Origin: Minisyncoccota bacterium
GTDB lineage: Bacteria > Patescibacteriota > Minisyncoccia > Phycocordibacterales > GWA1-40-21
Assembly (NCBI GenBank): GCA_041664585.1
Contig: JBAYKL010000002.1
Location: 13,494-77,493 of the forward strand
Length of the DNA stretch: 64,000 nt
Direction: 5' to 3'
The position numbers and the translations under genes were made by a program. Of the stretch, positions 11,911 to 38,454 are shown piece after piece. Every line of letters begins with the position of its first letter. Position 1 is the first letter of the stretch. The notes under the pieces were generated by a model. That model was given only the letters and a program-made list of their open reading frames with translations. It searched no databases and had not been told where the DNA came from.

Positions 11911-11994
11911 CTTAGTGCGTATAGTATACAAGATAAACGACCAAAATAAAAATGGAAAAGGAAAAGCGTACCTTGCGGTACGCTTTTCCATAAA

Positions 11995-12300
11995 CCTTTA
12001 TATCTATAAGCCGAATTCTGTATTCACCGAAGTGAACGACAATCATCTATCTGGGCCAAATATTACTACTTGGCTCAAGCGGCGCTTCCGCATAAAGCGG
12101 ACACGGCCTTGCACAGAGGTAAGGATTTAGCATGTTGCACTTCTGTCTTTCAACAGACATATTCCCGAAGGAACCCTAGCTTTTCAGCATCAGCATCACT
12201 GTTCGCACCTCTAAGATCACTCTAGACGGGCGTTACCCGCTACCCTGCTCGTTTAAATAAATAAACGCTGTGTTCGGACTTTCCTCTAGTTATAAATAAC
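11995..12300. ncRNA. GC-rich non-coding block with stable hairpins (candidate structured RNA; strand and identity unresolved)
   Basis: no plausible ORF; GC clearly above flanks; hairpins ccgcataaagcgg, ttcacttcggtgaa (UUCG) and ccttcgggaa. Confidence 0.3.
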
Positions 12301-12367
12301 CAGCGATTGTCTAATATGAAGGCCAAATAAGCATACAATATGTTGGGTAAAAAAGCAAGTGATTGGC

Positions 12368-12489: not shown

Positions 12490-13593
12490 ATGTGGATATA
12501 CATCATCGTATCGTTAGTTTTAACCGGGATATTACTAGCCGGTTTACACTTCGCCATGATCAAGTTGGCTGGATTACTCGCGGTCAGAACAATCTTACTT
12601 GCGAGTCCAAAAATTGGTCGTGCTATGGCTAGAACCAGAAATGGAAAGATAACTGGCTATATAGCGAATATGGCTGGTTTGGGACACGATATCATTCCAG
12701 AAACAGGAGAACTATTCAAAAGCCAAAGTACAAATCATGGCTGGTTGTGGGATCACTACGGTGTATTGTGGATAGGTTTCGATAAAATCCACAAATACAA
12801 TATAACCGTTGTGAAAATAGATAAAGACGGCAACTACAAAAAAGAAACGGTGGTTGCCGAGTCTTTGTTTTTATCACAGTCTTGGCCGATGATAATAAGC
12901 GACGAACTAAAGACAAAAGAAGGTATCGAGCTAGTAGCGAAGGTTAACCTAAATCTCATACTAACCCATGCTGGATTAGGTATGGGACATCAACCCAACT
13001 GGTCTATAGTAATCGATATGGCTGTTATGGCAGCTGTTAGAGATTTCTGTGGATCACACAGTATTGATGAAGTTTTTAGTAGACCACACGAGGGCTCAAT
13101 TGCGGATCATACTAAATCGAAACTTATTGATCTGATACTGAGTCTGAATAATGGTACTGAGGGAAACCCTGGACTAAAAGACAAGATTGGAATGCAGATC
13201 GCTTCTTTTAACCTCATCTCAATTGACATTGTGGATGAGAAAGTAAAGGAACAGCTGCAAGCCAAATTCAATGCTGAGCAAGAAGGGAAAGCAAGAGTTA
13301 CTACAGCCGAAGCTGATGTTCAGGTGGCCGAAAAAGAATTGCTGGCTCGGACAAAACGTGCCGAAGCGCTTCTTGTCGAGAAACAAAAAGAAGCTGAGGG
13401 AGTCAAAGCAATCGGTGATGCCAAAAATGCCGTGCTCTTAAAACGAGTAGAAGCATTTGGAAATAAACCTGAGCTTCTGGCTGCCATAATGACCGCTGAA
13501 GGATACCAAGCTGGTACCTTGGTATTTGGGGATAAGGCAATGATCCTTGGAGAAAGAAAAAATGAAACTAGGCCAGTTGATAAAAAAGATTAA
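12490..13593 (+). CDS. SPFH/band-7 family membrane protein (prohibitin/flotillin-like)
   Basis: N-terminal TM helix, globular domain, then a long charged coiled coil (KFNAEQEGKARVTTAEADVQVAEKELLARTKRAEALLVEKQKEAEG); GC-elevated. Confidence 0.5.
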   Translation: MWIYIIVSLVLTGILLAGLHFAMIKLAGLLAVRTILLASPKIGRAMARTRNGKITGYIANMAGLGHDIIPETGELFKSQSTNHGWLWDHYGVLWIGFDKIHKYNITVVKIDKDGNYKKETVVAESLFLSQSWPMIISDELKTKEGIELVAKVNLNLILTHAGLGMGHQPNWSIVIDMAVMAAVRDFCGSHSIDEVFSRPHEGSIADHTKSKLIDLILSLNNGTEGNPGLKDKIGMQIASFNLISIDIVDEKVKEQLQAKFNAEQEGKARVTTAEADVQVAEKELLARTKRAEALLVEKQKEAEGVKAIGDAKNAVLLKRVEAFGNKPELLAAIMTAEGYQAGTLVFGDKAMILGERKNETRPVDKKD

Positions 13594-34883: not shown

Positions 34884-35525
34884 ATGAAAATAAAATTAAT
34901 TATTTTATCACTCTCTTTGATACTCAGTGGCACAATAATATCAAAAGCTCTCGCTGGTCAAAATGGTGGGGATGATAATAGAAATACATCAACTTCATGG
35001 ACAAATGATGATGATAGAGATGGAGACAGAAACTCAACTTCATCCAGAGAAGAAGATGATGATAGATTTTCGACATCAACAGCTACTTCTACTAGAGAAG
35101 ATAATAAAATTGGAGAAGAACACAGAAGCGAAATTGCAAATTTTATTAAATCTCTTTTAAAAGTAGCCGACAGGAATGAAGGCATCGGTGAAAAAGTAAG
35201 AGTTATGGCGAGAGAACAAGCCAGCTCTAGTGATAAGGTGGCAGAGGCAATAAATACAATAGAAAAACGCAGCAACCTCAAGACGTTTTTAATTGGAACC
35301 GATTATAAAAATATAGGTAAAATCAGAAGCGAAATAGCACAAACAAGAAATAAAATTGATGAGTTAAATAAAGATTTAGCTAAATTATCTACATCAACAG
35401 ATAAAACCACTATAGAAAATGAAATGAAATCTCTAGAAACTTCACAGGAAAAAATAGAAGATTTTATGAAAAAGAACGAAAGCAGATTTAGTCTATTCGG
35501 TTGGTTTGTAAAACTATTTCAGTAG
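34884..35525 (+). CDS. secreted hypothetical protein with acidic low-complexity N-terminus
   Basis: signal peptide, D/N/S/T-rich stretch, then a helical C-terminal domain. Confidence 0.45.
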   Translation: MKIKLIILSLSLILSGTIISKALAGQNGGDDNRNTSTSWTNDDDRDGDRNSTSSREEDDDRFSTSTATSTREDNKIGEEHRSEIANFIKSLLKVADRNEGIGEKVRVMAREQASSSDKVAEAINTIEKRSNLKTFLIGTDYKNIGKIRSEIAQTRNKIDELNKDLAKLSTSTDKTTIENEMKSLETSQEKIEDFMKKNESRFSLFGWFVKLFQ

Positions 35526-35652: not shown

Positions 35653-35682
35653 AAAAACACCCGCTGACCGGGTGTTTTTTTA
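35653..35682. terminator. bidirectional intrinsic terminator
   Basis: aaaaaacacccgctgaccgggtgttttttt. Confidence 0.7.
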
Positions 35683-36714
35683 TTCTGCTTTTATAAGTTT
35701 TGACAAAACCAATTCCAATGGAAGTTCAGGAATATAGGCCTTCGCCACCATATCGTAATAAGACAAAAGAATAAGTAATGTTTCCGAATTAATCTTTGAT
35801 GGTTTTTTTTCAGCTAATTCTTTCAAGAACTTGAAATCTGTATCCGTCATTTCTTCTTGTAACTTCCCTTCTGAACTCTTAAGATTCCTTAAAAGCAGAA
35901 CCCATCTCATTTTATGAAGCACAAGTTTAAAATACAAAAGCATATCGATATTAGAATCAGAAGCTTTTGTGACCGCATTCATTCCTAGTTCTAAGTTATT
36001 TTCATCTATTGCTCTCAGAAAATCATTTACCAACTCACCCTTAGGTGCGCCTGTCACAATTTCAACTTCTTCTACAGAAATCTTTTTATCTTTTGATGAT
36101 CCAATTATTTTTTGTAGGATACTTTGCGCATCTCTAAAAGATCCGTCCCCAAGAAGTGCGACTAAATCCGCAGAGGCTGGTTCAAGAATAAAACCTTCTT
36201 TCTTTGCTATATTTATAGCAACATCTCTAAGTACTTTATGTGTAGGTTTTTTGAATAGAAAGCACTGACATCTAGAAACAATGGTCTCAGGTATTTTGTT
36301 TACTTCTGTTGTAGCAAGTATAAAAACGACGTGTTTAGGTGGTTCTTCAAGGGTTTTTAAAAGTGCATTCCAAGCAGACTTAGAAAGCATATGGGCCTCG
36401 TCTAATATATAAACTTTGTATTCTGATTCAAAAGGAAGGGTGCTTATAGATTCATTAAGTGCTCTAATATCATCTACACCAGTATTTGAAGCGGCATCTA
36501 TTTCAGTAATATCATTTGCACTTGTACCAATTTCTTTTGCAAAAATTCTAGCGATACTCGTCTTACCAGTACCACGAGAACCAGAAAAGATATATGCATG
36601 AAAAACGTTTCCGAGATCAATAGAAGATTCCAAAACCTTTACGATATGATCTTGACCAAGGACTTCCTTAAAAGCCTGGGGACGATATTTACGATAGTAT
36701 GCTGTTTCTTGCAT
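35680..36714 (-). CDS. dnaX: DNA polymerase III subunit gamma/tau (short form)
   Basis: AAA+ clamp-loader motifs LGQDHIVKVL and FSGSRGTGKTS; 344 aa. Confidence 0.85.
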   Translation of the reverse strand: MQETAYYRKYRPQAFKEVLGQDHIVKVLESSIDLGNVFHAYIFSGSRGTGKTSIARIFAKEIGTSANDITEIDAASNTGVDDIRALNESISTLPFESEYKVYILDEAHMLSKSAWNALLKTLEEPPKHVVFILATTEVNKIPETIVSRCQCFLFKKPTHKVLRDVAINIAKKEGFILEPASADLVALLGDGSFRDAQSILQKIIGSSKDKKISVEEVEIVTGAPKGELVNDFLRAIDENNLELGMNAVTKASDSNIDMLLYFKLVLHKMRWVLLLRNLKSSEGKLQEEMTDTDFKFLKELAEKKPSKINSETLLILLSYYDMVAKAYIPELPLELVLSKLIKAE

Positions 36715-36729
36715 AAAGAGATTATAGCA

Positions 36730-37440
36730 TCAGATATAAAAATGGGAAATAAAAAAAGGCCATTATGCCACGAGCGAACTCGGGGCATAATAGCCAATGA
36801 ACTTAAAACTTTTTTTATTAAGTTAGCTTAAGCAGAAGTCTAGCCCCAACGTTTCCTGAGATTACTCTCAAGCTCTAATTAGGGTGCAAGGCTTATACCT
36901 CCTTTCATGATACCGGAATTTCTTGGCCGTCACGGTCGTAGTTACCTTGTCGGGATTTTTGGACCGTAAAGCGCAGGCCGGCAGCCGAGTTAGGCGCCGA
37001 TGCAGGCAGTTTTTGCTTTAGTTACTACAGATTTACGGCGAATCGTCGGGGGACCAGTTTTCATGCGAAGGTTCTCCTTCTTGTTTAACTTACTTATTAT
37101 ATTTAGCAGAAGAGTACCTCTCCTCTGCTTTGCAGGTGATGTCGGCGCAATATCTTTCGCGCGCCAATAACCACCAAAATTCAAAGAACAAAAAAGTGAG
37201 ATGGTTACCAGTGATTCCTTACTTATTTTTTCCCTTAACGGCGCCAAAAACATCGGGGCGCGACAGCCAGAAACATGTCTCCCAACGAAATCTCGCTCAT
37301 CGCGGATTGTTTCGTCATAGACAAGACCCAAACTGTAACGGGATACGGGAACCTACTGGTAACCAACTCTGCATAGAAAGTTATCACACTATTACTAGTT
37401 TGTCAACTGTTTTTCGATTTTCTTTTTTATATTCCTAAAA
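36730..37440. ncRNA. GC-rich non-coding block upstream of dnaX (candidate structured RNA or RNAs; identity unresolved)
   Basis: about 700 nt, with local GC near 55-60 percent by eye; only non-protein-like ORFs; many stable stems; in a position where ffs/SRP RNA often precedes dnaX. Confidence 0.35.
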
Positions 37441-37458
37441 TAGCTATATTTATAGCCG

Positions 37459-38454
37459 TTATTTTGTAGCATCTAAATAACTTTTAATTATTTTTTCTAC
37501 TTCCTTTTCTGTATTACATTGCATAAGTTCATTTCTCAATTCTTTTGCTCCATCAAATCCATTCACATACGCTTTAAAATGCTTTTTCATTACAGCAAAA
37601 TTCTTTTGATTCTTTAATAGTTTATTAAAAAGCTTGGTGTGTTCTACGAGTACTTTTAGTTTTTCTTTTATAGAAACTTCTTTTGTTCTCTTAGAATCAA
37701 AGAGCCAAGGATTTCCAAAAATCCCCCTCCCTATCATCACTCCTTCAAATACAGTATCTTTTATTTTCTCTTTACCATCTTTTGGAGATTTAATATCACC
37801 GTTTGCAATGAGGACAACTTCTTTATCTATACCTCTAACAAATTCAGAAATCTCTTTTGCAAGTTCCCAGTGTGCATCAACCTTGGACATCTCTTTTCTA
37901 GTACGTAAGTGTACCGTAAGAGCAACCGGCTTTTCTGCCAAAACTTCTGTGAGCCAATTTTGATAATCTATTTTGTTATATCCAATTCTTGTTTTCACAG
38001 ATATTGGAAGATTCGGCGCACCTCTTTTTGCGGCTTTTATGACTTCTCTGGCAATTTTAGGGTTCTTCATCATTGCAGACCCTGCTCCCTGTTTCTCTAC
38101 CTTTCTATCAGGACAACCCATATTGAGATCAATACCATCAAAACCAAGCTCCGAGATTATTTTACAAGTAGTTTCAATGTTTTCTGGTTTGGAACCAAAT
38201 ATCTGAGCAATTACTGGTTTCTCTTTTTTAGAAAACTCTAAATCTTGAAGAAGCGGCTTTCTGCCTTTTAGAGATGCAATTCCATCTGCAGCAACAAATT
38301 CAGTCCAAAATACATCTGGCCCACCACCTGTTTCCCCATGTCTACTATATTTAGCGATTATTTGTCTAAAGGCAATATCAGTAACATCTGCCATAGGTGC
38401 AAGACAAGTAAAGCCTTTATTTTTTCTTATTTTCTCCCAAAAATTCTTTTTCAC
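37459..38454 (-). CDS. dus: tRNA-dihydrouridine synthase
   Basis: LAPMADVTD, GFDGIDLNMGCP and catalytic Cys in a TIM barrel; C-terminal helical domain. Confidence 0.8.
   Translation of the reverse strand: MKKNFWEKIRKNKGFTCLAPMADVTDIAFRQIIAKYSRHGETGGGPDVFWTEFVAADGIASLKGRKPLLQDLEFSKKEKPVIAQIFGSKPENIETTCKIISELGFDGIDLNMGCPDRKVEKQGAGSAMMKNPKIAREVIKAAKRGAPNLPISVKTRIGYNKIDYQNWLTEVLAEKPVALTVHLRTRKEMSKVDAHWELAKEISEFVRGIDKEVVLIANGDIKSPKDGKEKIKDTVFEGVMIGRGIFGNPWLFDSKRTKEVSIKEKLKVLVEHTKLFNKLLKNQKNFAVMKKHFKAYVNGFDGAKELRNELMQCNTEKEVEKIIKSYLDATK

Follow-up and report, generated by a model that had tools for sequence, protein, structure and literature searches.

The dus-dnaX spacer of a Minisyncoccota genome appears to be a clade-restricted, modular RNA and small-ORF gene

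What lies between dus and dnaX on contig JBAYKL010000002.1 of a Minisyncoccota bacterium (assembly GCA_041664585.1)? In the stretch of 64,000 nucleotides (nt) analysed here (positions 13,494 to 77,493 of the contig, forward strand; hereafter the window, whose coordinates are used unless a related locus is named), the two genes are separated by a gap of 744 nt (36715-37458), the longest stretch in the window without an open reading frame (ORF) of at least 80 amino acids (aa). The initial annotation took it for a GC-rich, structured non-coding RNA (ncRNA) locus of open identity. Judged from the sequence comparisons described below, the gap appears to be a new, clade-restricted, modular gene for an RNA and a small ORF (sORF), not one large globular ncRNA. 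Our favoured reading, with a probability of roughly 0.5, is that of a translated, ribosome-engaging regulatory RNA (a dual-function sORF RNA), which forms an independent unit between dus and a leaderless dnaX. The flanking genes are as follows.

Positions 35680-36714, minus strand: dnaX; the gap lies upstream of it.
Positions 37459-38454, minus strand: dus, a Dus-family tRNA-dihydrouridine synthase gene (Pfam Dus, E 7e-62; stop codon 37461-37459); the gap lies downstream of it.

The DnaX of the window is identical to a protein annotated in a 'Candidatus Paceibacterota bacterium' metagenome-assembled genome. Related loci (given L numbers) were fetched via DnaX by 11 exact look-ups of homologues, one metagenome scan and one genome scan. 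Distant Paceibacterota, with a DnaX ~50% identical, have 0-30 nt between the end of a Dus gene and dnaX; members of the window's clade, at 59-98% DnaX identity, have a spacer of 260 to at least 3000 nt. The spacer is a mosaic. A promoter block and a terminator/dnaX-promoter block align across relatives, and the interior is partly alignable at 95% DnaX identity and largely replaced at 82-87%. The conserved blocks contain the following elements.

Positions 37378..37430, minus strand: candidate promoter of the spacer RNA, read from the sequence.
Positions 36751..36795, minus strand: predicted intrinsic terminator that ends the spacer RNA; its interrupted stem of 16 bp is capped by a UUCG loop and followed by a U7 tail.
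Positions 36729-36721, minus strand: extended -10 box of dnaX, TGcTATAAT, 6 nt before the ATG (36714-36712), with no Shine-Dalgarno sequence (SD).

The candidate promoter comprises an A-rich UP-like tract (37430-37407), a perfect -35 box TTGACA (37406-37401), 17 nt of spacing and an extended -10 box TGaTAACTT (37386-37378), of which the hexamer matches three of six consensus positions and keeps T-12, A-11 and T-7; the transcription start is predicted near 37370. The promoter block, AAAAAAGAAAAT..AGTTGACA, is kept in L004, L171, L006 and L012 while the interior diverges. The terminator folds at -26 kcal/mol (z -7.3 against shuffles), and a hairpin with a T-run is found at the same place in every related locus. 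Conservation of the promoter block and the terminator around a diverging interior supports the boundaries of an RNA gene, and we infer from sequence that the gap reads as one minus-strand transcription unit of ~620 nt, from ~37370 to 36751. The downstream gene would be transcribed on its own. TATAAT or TATACT followed by N6-ATG precedes dnaX in ~25 Paceibacterota loci (e.g. L105, L109, L111 and L117), in some of which the conserved -10 box sits inside the 3' end of dus; these signals indicate that the dnaX mRNA is probably leaderless, with its own promoter, throughout the Paceibacterota loci compared. As a leaderless promoter of its own precedes dnaX in all relatives, the upstream unit is not the 5' untranslated region (UTR) of dnaX. 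A riboswitch or leader of dnaX was rejected, given the conserved TGnTATAAT 6 nt from the ATG, the lack of an SD and the lack of a match to any riboswitch family.

Two parts of the unit are conserved beyond the closest relatives: an SD-led sORF with an N-proximal (T/I/S)-G/S-P-P, and a 69-nt element, motif F. The former is made up as follows.

Positions 37079-37074, minus strand: SD AAGGAG.
Positions 37064-36990, minus strand: sORF of 24 codons, encoding MKTGPPTIRRKSVVTKAKTACIGA (MKTGPPT...).

The SD, the ATG and the open frame are kept in four diverged lineages: the window, L004/L171 (peptide MIGPPMIHCKYSLRNTKTE(A/T)AALGA, beginning MIGPPMIH), L006 (MKKVGIGPPMASRKKEIRKTKMLQISNPAAASC, beginning MKKVGIGPPMA) and unit 1 of L010 (MHTTSPPRLASRHSQKLSKIAIGASSML, beginning MHTTSPPRL). 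The insertions and deletions, of 3 and 6 nt, preserve the frame, and Gly-Pro-Pro is encoded by differing synonymous codons (GGT/GGA/GGG, CCC/CCG and CCG/CCC). Since the rest of the peptide changes freely, only the N-proximal x-G/S-P-P looks constrained as amino acids; a conserved AUCGGCGCC near the stop codon may reflect a constraint on the RNA. The window peptide is basic and hydrophilic, and no hydrophobic signal segment was seen in any spacer peptide examined. The initial annotation had set a structured RNA against a conserved protein-coding frame. Such a frame does exist in miniature, as this 24-codon SD-led sORF, and the long ORFs of the gap have no homologues.

Similar motifs occur in further SD-led spacer peptides, namely MKTHMAPRAGPVSG... 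and MKIHYSPIAGPFEY... of L010, MKKTNHGTARAGPIWGY... of L092, MRKTRPSRKARAPP-stop of L093 and M(HM)ARDGP-stop of L014. The L010 peptides MKIHYSPIAGPFEY and MKTHMAPRAGPVSG are paralogous and share H-x3-4-(I/R)AGP with MKKTNHGTARAGPIWGY of L092. The motifs are RAPP-like: TGPP in the window, RAGP in L010 and L092, RAPP-stop in L093 and RDGP-stop in L014. RAGP is the arrest core of SecM and RAPP that of ApdA/ApdP (RAPP-like families: PMC10987492, PMC10951233, PMC12992588), Fujiwara et al. 2024 (PMC10987492) included TGPP and RDGP in their RAPP-like query set, and RAPP/RGPP are strongly avoided in proteomes (PMC12992588). When the published RAPP-like set was searched in 19 spacers in three frames, seven occurrences were found on the dnaX strand and one on the opposite strand, with 0.83 +/- 0.82 in 300 shuffles (maximum 3); SD-led sORFs account for five of the seven, and the G/C runs of terminators for two. 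For a count of SD-led sORFs of 5-60 codons, L171 was dropped as a near-duplicate of L004, which left 18 spacers. The dnaX strand of these has 51 such sORFs, 10 of them with [AGS]PP or [AD]GP; the opposite strand has 21, of which 2 carry such a motif, and shuffles give 18 +/- 4.7 and 0.14. All these shuffles of the spacers preserve mononucleotide composition only.

The second conserved part lies nearer to the terminator.

Positions 36838..36906, minus strand: motif F, defined by covariance models R1 and R2.
Positions 36884-36879 with 36849-36844, minus strand: helix P1 of motif F.
Positions 36872-36866 with 36861-36855, minus strand: hairpin P2 of motif F.

In the window, motif F consists in order of GAAAGGAGG, a linker ending in CCUUGCA, P1, the internal loops UUAGAG and AAACG, the P2 hairpin and CUAGAC. 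Its consensus begins with GAAAGGAG(G), 8-14 nt ending in A-C-Y-Y-R-N-N-A, P1 (CCCNNN) and a purine-rich loop (..AGAG/..AGAU), and ends with a variable P2 hairpin (apex of 3-30 nt), the loop A-A/C-A-C-N, P1' (NNNGGG) and CUAG(A/U)C. Model R1, built from six copies, and R2, built from twelve, found 13 copies in 11 lineages (the window, L004, L171, L006, L175 with two, L012, L010, L011, L014, L180 and L177 with two), every one of them in the dus-dnaX spacer on the dnaX strand; no copy was found elsewhere in the ~0.5 Mb searched. In the 12-sequence alignment 92% of the cells are paired, and six of the 13 pairs have changed on both sides (22 cells). Position 4 of P1, for example, is A-U, U-A, G-C or U-G. 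The covariation is present in both helices, its score was reached by none of 500 shuffles, and the signal was lost when the partners were slid by 1-3 columns. Motif F is therefore proposed, from its sequence comparison, as a candidate new structured RNA family.

Over 9-10 nt, and over 14 nt in L011, the SD-like sequence GAAAGGAGG is the complement of the anti-SD. Long SDs of this kind also precede ordinary genes in the window, so that GAAAGGAGG is not special in itself. This strong SD lies 84 nt beyond the sORF and is followed only by a non-conserved mini-ORF and the terminator. A conserved mini-ORF at this place (MHPN*, MKP*) was considered and dropped, for its frame varies, it is anything from 2 to 51 codons long, and the start codon is missing from L180 and L177. 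As neither frame, length nor start codon is conserved, motif F is read as an RNA structure and not as a gene. An SD-sequestering helix P0 (AAGG/CCUU, with the CCUU 8 nt downstream) was likewise set aside; it forms in the window with 3-4 bp and is inconsistent across the copies. Pairing of the CCCCC run of the sORF with P1' (GGGG) is present in the minimum free energy (MFE) fold of the window and not in L004, L171 or L006, and no conserved pairing between the sORF and motif F or the terminator was found. Apart from this, stretches of 12-14 nt perfectly complementary to the 3' tail of 16S rRNA (AGAAAGGAGGTGATC) occur in L011 (1630-1645) and L180 (~2560-2580); they lie inside the spacer RNAs, far exceed an ordinary SD in length and lack a plausible start codon at the proper distance.

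The remainder of the predicted RNA is composed of local domains.

Positions 37203..37364, minus strand: domain B, a 162-nt 5' domain with the 10-bp terminal helix GGUUACCAGU...ACUGGUAACC.
Positions 37165-37144, minus strand: hairpin S1.
Positions 37128-37106, minus strand: hairpin S2, -14.5 kcal/mol.
Positions 36915..36985, minus strand: region E, a GC-rich linker with a local hairpin, the sole sub-block of ~55% GC.

Domain B has an MFE of -56.7 kcal/mol (z -3.1). Compared with L006 (2298-2483), it shows 53% identity and 35 shared pairs, of which six are compensatory, two of these in the terminal helix, seven are changed on one side and none is broken; its covariance model matched the window and L006 only. 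S1 and S2 are the two stems that had been cited by the initial annotation, and both are present as described (37144-37165 and 37106-37128). In L004/L171, S2 differs by one compensatory change and three one-sided ones and still pairs. The fold of region E is no better than that of shuffles (z -0.6), and L004 and L171 are the only relatives that share the region. S1, S2, the region E hairpin and motif F all persist from the window to these two, whereas 26 of 95 predicted pairs, mostly long-range, break between relatives at 95% DnaX identity. Because long-range pairs break and local hairpins hold, the RNA is regarded as a chain of local modules and not as a single fold of the OLE, GOLLD or ROOL type. 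The suggestion of a structured RNA thus stood in part. Compensatory changes were found in motif F (69 nt), domain B (162 nt) and hairpin S2; one large, globally folded ncRNA was not. As in an independent RNA gene, a conserved predicted promoter and terminator bracket this covariation-supported structure.

The composition of the gap is less extreme than had been described. The window has a guanine-cytosine (GC) content of 35.5% with a standard deviation of 3.8% for 711-nt windows. Instead of the 55-60% that had been stated, GC is 42.9% over 36730-37440 and 45.3% in the core, ~2 standard deviations above the mean of the window, which ranks the gap region 88th of 1266 windows. Only 36900-37000 attains 55-56%, and ~55% extends over only ~150 nt. 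The minus strand of the gap folds at -224.7 kcal/mol (z -7.0 against shuffles) and better than the plus strand (-200.8 kcal/mol, z -5.5), and the gap sequence is single-copy within the 64-kb window. The overlapping opposite-strand ORFs of 113 aa (36990-37331, minus) and 102 aa (37130-37438, plus) exist as had been reported. A Pfam search with both gave no match, and the sole match of the 113-aa ORF among 5.8 billion proteins was its own 87-aa JGI gene call, with no homologue. The non-coding block upstream of dnaX is thus real and not a protein gene.

The whole unit of promoter, RNA and terminator behaves as an entity, which supports the favoured reading. In L175 (1-690) it is tandemly duplicated; the motif F copies at 93-160 and 454-522 are each followed by their own terminator, and the second unit has its own TTGATA...TAGTAT promoter. 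The 2-kb spacer of L010 (1003-3000) contains four co-oriented promoter-like sites, several terminators, one motif F unit and two paralogous sORFs. In L092, the 3 kb upstream of dnaX have no ORF of at least 100 aa and hold an array of co-oriented promoter/terminator units. Per spacer, the number of units ranges from 0 to at least 4.

Some spacers carry further sequences. In L092 (1-3000), about five copies of a ~45-nt hairpin repeat (GTCGCGYAGTGTCCATTGAARCGCGAC-ATAAACTAATAGACAA) lie at about 654, 854, 1314, 2085 and 2560, and two exact copies of a related 50-nt repeat (ACGTCACCC...GGGGGACGCAAACTAATAGACAACTTCC) at 730 and 2479. These repeats are interspersed with small promoter-sORF-terminator units and were found at this locus only. 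The spacer of L177/L178 (1580-2367; DnaX 85% identical) also has an 88-aa ArsR/HTH_5-like gene and, on the opposite strand, an unannotated gene of 115-122 aa. The genes in L177/L178 suggest that the dus-dnaX junction is a general insertion hotspot.

How would such a unit work? We infer a ribosome-engaging regulatory role. A unit of ~620 nt would have been inserted between dus and the leaderless dnaX in one Paceibacterota sub-clade, and its minus-strand RNA would be transcribed from ~37370 to 36751. Ribosomes may load on the sORF, translate it and pause at the RAPP-like G-P-P. The 3' motif may then alternately hide and expose its SD-like sequence, by a helix that is weak in the window and inconsistently conserved. 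Candidate outputs are an altered stability of RNA, the titration of either ribosomes or a binding protein, and read-through into or occlusion of the adjacent dnaX promoter. A different and rather unlikely possibility, which we put forward tentatively, is that the spacer is a hypervariable cassette locus of self-promoted, self-terminated mini-genes for ultra-short RAPP-like arrest peptides, often coupled to the SD-bearing motif, which would sense translation or sequester ribosomes with no downstream protein gene.

Several observations weigh against the favoured reading. No regulated downstream gene is evident, and the mini-ORF behind motif F, with its 2-51 codons and its missing start codon in L180/L177, does not supply one. 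Within a narrow clade the greater part of the RNA, domain B and the sORF among it, has been replaced, so that constraint must be weak or function diversifying. The covariance search found no motif F copy in L008, L092, L016, L015, L093, L094, L095 or L021. The motif F alignment was fitted to the model, and the comparison comprises only ~12 lineages. The -10 hexamer of the window is weak, and a simple consensus scan did not call the spacer promoter. As to the peptides, the regular expression for the proline motifs was chosen after the pattern had been seen, four of the ten proline-motif sORFs (GPP/SPP) are orthologues and not independent cases, and the motif of the window stands at residues 3-6 of 24, unlike the C-terminal placement in known arrest peptides.

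If the sORF were incidental, the unit could be a purely non-coding trans-acting RNA with motif F as its core, which might for example sequester the 16S 3' tail or a GGA/SD-binding protein as a sponge or decoy. Indeed, no other interior element is conserved across 11 lineages, motif F is present in L011, unit 2 of L175, L180 and L177 with no PP-type sORF, and the complementarity of GAAAGGAGG to the anti-SD (9-10 nt; 14 nt in L011), together with the unit's own promoter and terminator, would suit such a role. This explanation is nevertheless doubtful, as SD, ATG and frame of the sORF are kept in four diverged lineages with synonymous change at G-P-P, similar long SDs precede ordinary window genes, and no partner protein or target was identified. 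A CsrA sponge in particular was rejected, for GGA motifs are not above the expectation from composition, by a hand estimate only.

The unit could also act in cis, as an attenuator or transcriptional-interference module in which translation or pausing on the sORF, together with motif F, sets terminator read-through across the dnaX promoter. All units are co-oriented with dnaX, the terminator always lies 25-70 nt before the dnaX -10 box, and the order of sORF, structured region, SD and terminator resembles that of leader-peptide attenuators. These features do not outweigh the facts that dnaX keeps TGnTATAAT-N6-ATG even where the spacer is lacking and has no SD for translation from a read-through RNA, that no conserved antiterminator pairing was found, and that spacers differ in their number of units (0 to at least 4). 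We consider a cis-acting module quite unlikely.

It is distinctly improbable that the spacer is merely decaying inserted DNA, i.e. the remnant of a mobile element or a pseudogene in an insertion hotspot, with no current function and a structure that reflects higher GC. Its absence in distant relatives, where dus abuts dnaX, its hypervariable mosaic nature, the uptake of protein genes into the L177 spacer, and the fact that both strands fold better than shuffles would fit this explanation. Compensatory changes, however, preserve P1/P2 as well as the helix of domain B, the promoter and the terminator are kept across relatives, whole units are duplicated, and the enrichment of SD-led sORFs is strand-specific. 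Neither blastn against phages and plasmids nor a motif F pattern scan of viral contigs revealed any similarity, and no protein remnant was found by Pfam or protein search.

A locus resembling type I toxin-antitoxin systems, in which the mRNA of a small toxic peptide with structured UTRs would be controlled by an antisense RNA, accords with the small SD-led sORF, the long structured 5' UTR, the own promoter and terminator, the tandem or variable copy number and the intergenic location. It is very improbable, since the peptide is basic and hydrophilic with no membrane helix, no plus-strand promoter-like site was seen within the unit, and the OrzO-P match is at chance level (E 3.2).

Known RNA families were sought with Rfam models, in the window and 33 related loci at the gathering threshold and, more permissively, at E<=10 in nine loci and, with lax filters, in 36600-37560. 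At the gathering threshold the window gave four tRNAs and one further RNA only.

Positions 11991-12322, minus strand: RNase P RNA of class A (Rfam RNaseP_bact_a, 125 bits, full length).

RNase P RNA, which the initial annotation had counted as unaccounted for in the window, is thus located outside the gap, and neither RNaseP_bact_a nor RNaseP_bact_b matched in the gap itself. At E<=10, 36600-37560 gave three chance-level matches and none to signal recognition particle (SRP) RNA, transfer-messenger RNA (tmRNA), 6S, OLE, GOLLD, ROOL, HEARO, raiA or a riboswitch, so that none of the families which the initial annotation had named for comparison was matched in the gap. The related loci gave tRNAs and chance-level matches (with the gap: JA04, OrzO-P, bCoV-5UTR, L20_leader and PyrR). 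ARAGORN found four tRNAs and no tmRNA in the window. The bacterial SRP RNA models (RF00169/RF01854) had no match at the gathering threshold, at E<=10 in the gap, or in the 33 related loci, and as to the GNRA tetraloop of SRP helix 8, P2 of motif F has the apices GUAA, AUAA, AUAAC, GACAU or ACAU, or a 30-nt insert. A highly divergent housekeeping RNA (SRP RNA/ffs, tmRNA, 6S or RNase P RNA), for which the single-copy, syntenic locus with its own promoter and terminator and the position of ffs upstream of dnaX in many bacteria could be cited, is already close to refuted by the lack of any Rfam match even at E<=10 and of a tmRNA by ARAGORN, by the RNase P RNA gene at 11991-12322, by the absence of the element in related Paceibacterota where dus abuts dnaX, and by a P2 apex that is not a conserved GNRA.

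Other assignments were also rejected. For 6S, OLE, GOLLD, ROOL, HEARO and raiA there is, besides the lack of a match at E<=10, no conserved global fold, and domain B occurs in two lineages only, on which ground a 6S-like reading of domain B was dropped as well. A preQ1-I-like reading of GGAGGGUUCUAUAGCC...CACCC in L011 was given up, as no PreQ1 match was obtained at E<=10. The internal loops were checked by eye for a k-turn or loop-E, and neither fits.

Two observations concern the surroundings of dnaX. In the window, a 213-aa ORF (34884-35525, plus strand) is convergent with dnaX and has no Pfam family on record; it has a signal-like N-terminus, a low-complexity segment rich in D/N/R/S/T and a probable coiled-coil tail, and adjoins dnaX in the closest relatives only (L001-L003, L171-L174). 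L091 (JAQTSO010000150.1) is a 2.9-kb contig, the DnaX of which is 82% identical to that of the window, deposited in an 'Endomicrobiaceae' metagenome-assembled genome; the contig is probably a binning contaminant from a Paceibacterota genome.

The genomes of Candidate Phyla Radiation (CPR)/Patescibacteria are small and tightly packed, and regulatory RNAs are almost undescribed there; in the literature searched on ncRNAs or leaderless genes of CPR/Patescibacteria we found no description of the dus-dnaX locus or of the motif. A non-coding locus of 0.3-3 kb beside an essential replication gene, which turns over rapidly within a clade and yet keeps a covarying motif and mini-ORFs with proline motifs, offers a concrete entry point. 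If the sORFs stall ribosomes, arrest peptides extend to signal-less forms of 6-30 residues that lack a downstream gene; otherwise, motif F still stands as a candidate RNA family for curation in the manner of Rfam. Should the spacer be a cassette locus, arrest peptides would have a hitherto undescribed use there, in bacteria whose ribosomes are reduced.

Which known system does the unit resemble most? Its likeness to the ffs-dnaX arrangement of Firmicutes and others, a single-copy RNA gene directly upstream of dnaX and co-oriented with it, is positional only; unlike ffs, it matches neither bacterial SRP model, has no conserved GNRA/domain IV loops and is absent in sister lineages. Leader-peptide transcription attenuators of the trp, his and pyr type have an SD, a short ORF, hairpins, an intrinsic terminator and a downstream gene on the same strand in this order, as has the spacer unit. 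It differs from them in that the downstream dnaX is self-promoted and leaderless, no antiterminator/terminator pairing is conserved and the peptide has no regulatory codon run. Dual-function small RNAs (sRNAs) or sORF-bearing RNAs, e.g. SgrS-SgrT, RNAIII-hld and SR1-SR1P, share with the spacer RNA a predicted own promoter and intrinsic terminator, a structured RNA of a few hundred nt and a very short SD-led ORF inside. The spacer RNA has no sequence or structure relationship to these and no known target, turns over faster and forms tandem arrays in some relatives, and its conserved 3' motif bears an SD-like sequence where dual-function sRNAs have a C/U-rich seed. RAPP-like arrest peptides (SecM, ApdA/ApdP, ApcA RAPG, RQH) resemble the spacer sORFs in that the latter carry published RAPP-like tetrapeptides, are each followed by structured RNA and, in the window, also by a strong SD. 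Known members are ~100 aa or longer, have an N-terminal localisation signal, bear the motif close to the C-terminus and control a gene downstream, be it sec, yidC or another (PMC10987492, PMC10951233, PMC12992588), whereas the spacer peptides are of 6-33 aa and signal-less, have the motif at the C-terminus in L093 and L014 only, and are followed by no regulated gene but by a terminator and the leaderless dnaX. Because they have no localisation signal, the window motif is not C-terminal and there is no regulated downstream gene, they are not members of the SecM, ApdA/ApdP or RQH families as defined. Of these systems, the spacer RNA would work most like the dual-function or sORF-bearing RNAs, and its sORFs resemble arrest peptides of the RAPP type in miniature.

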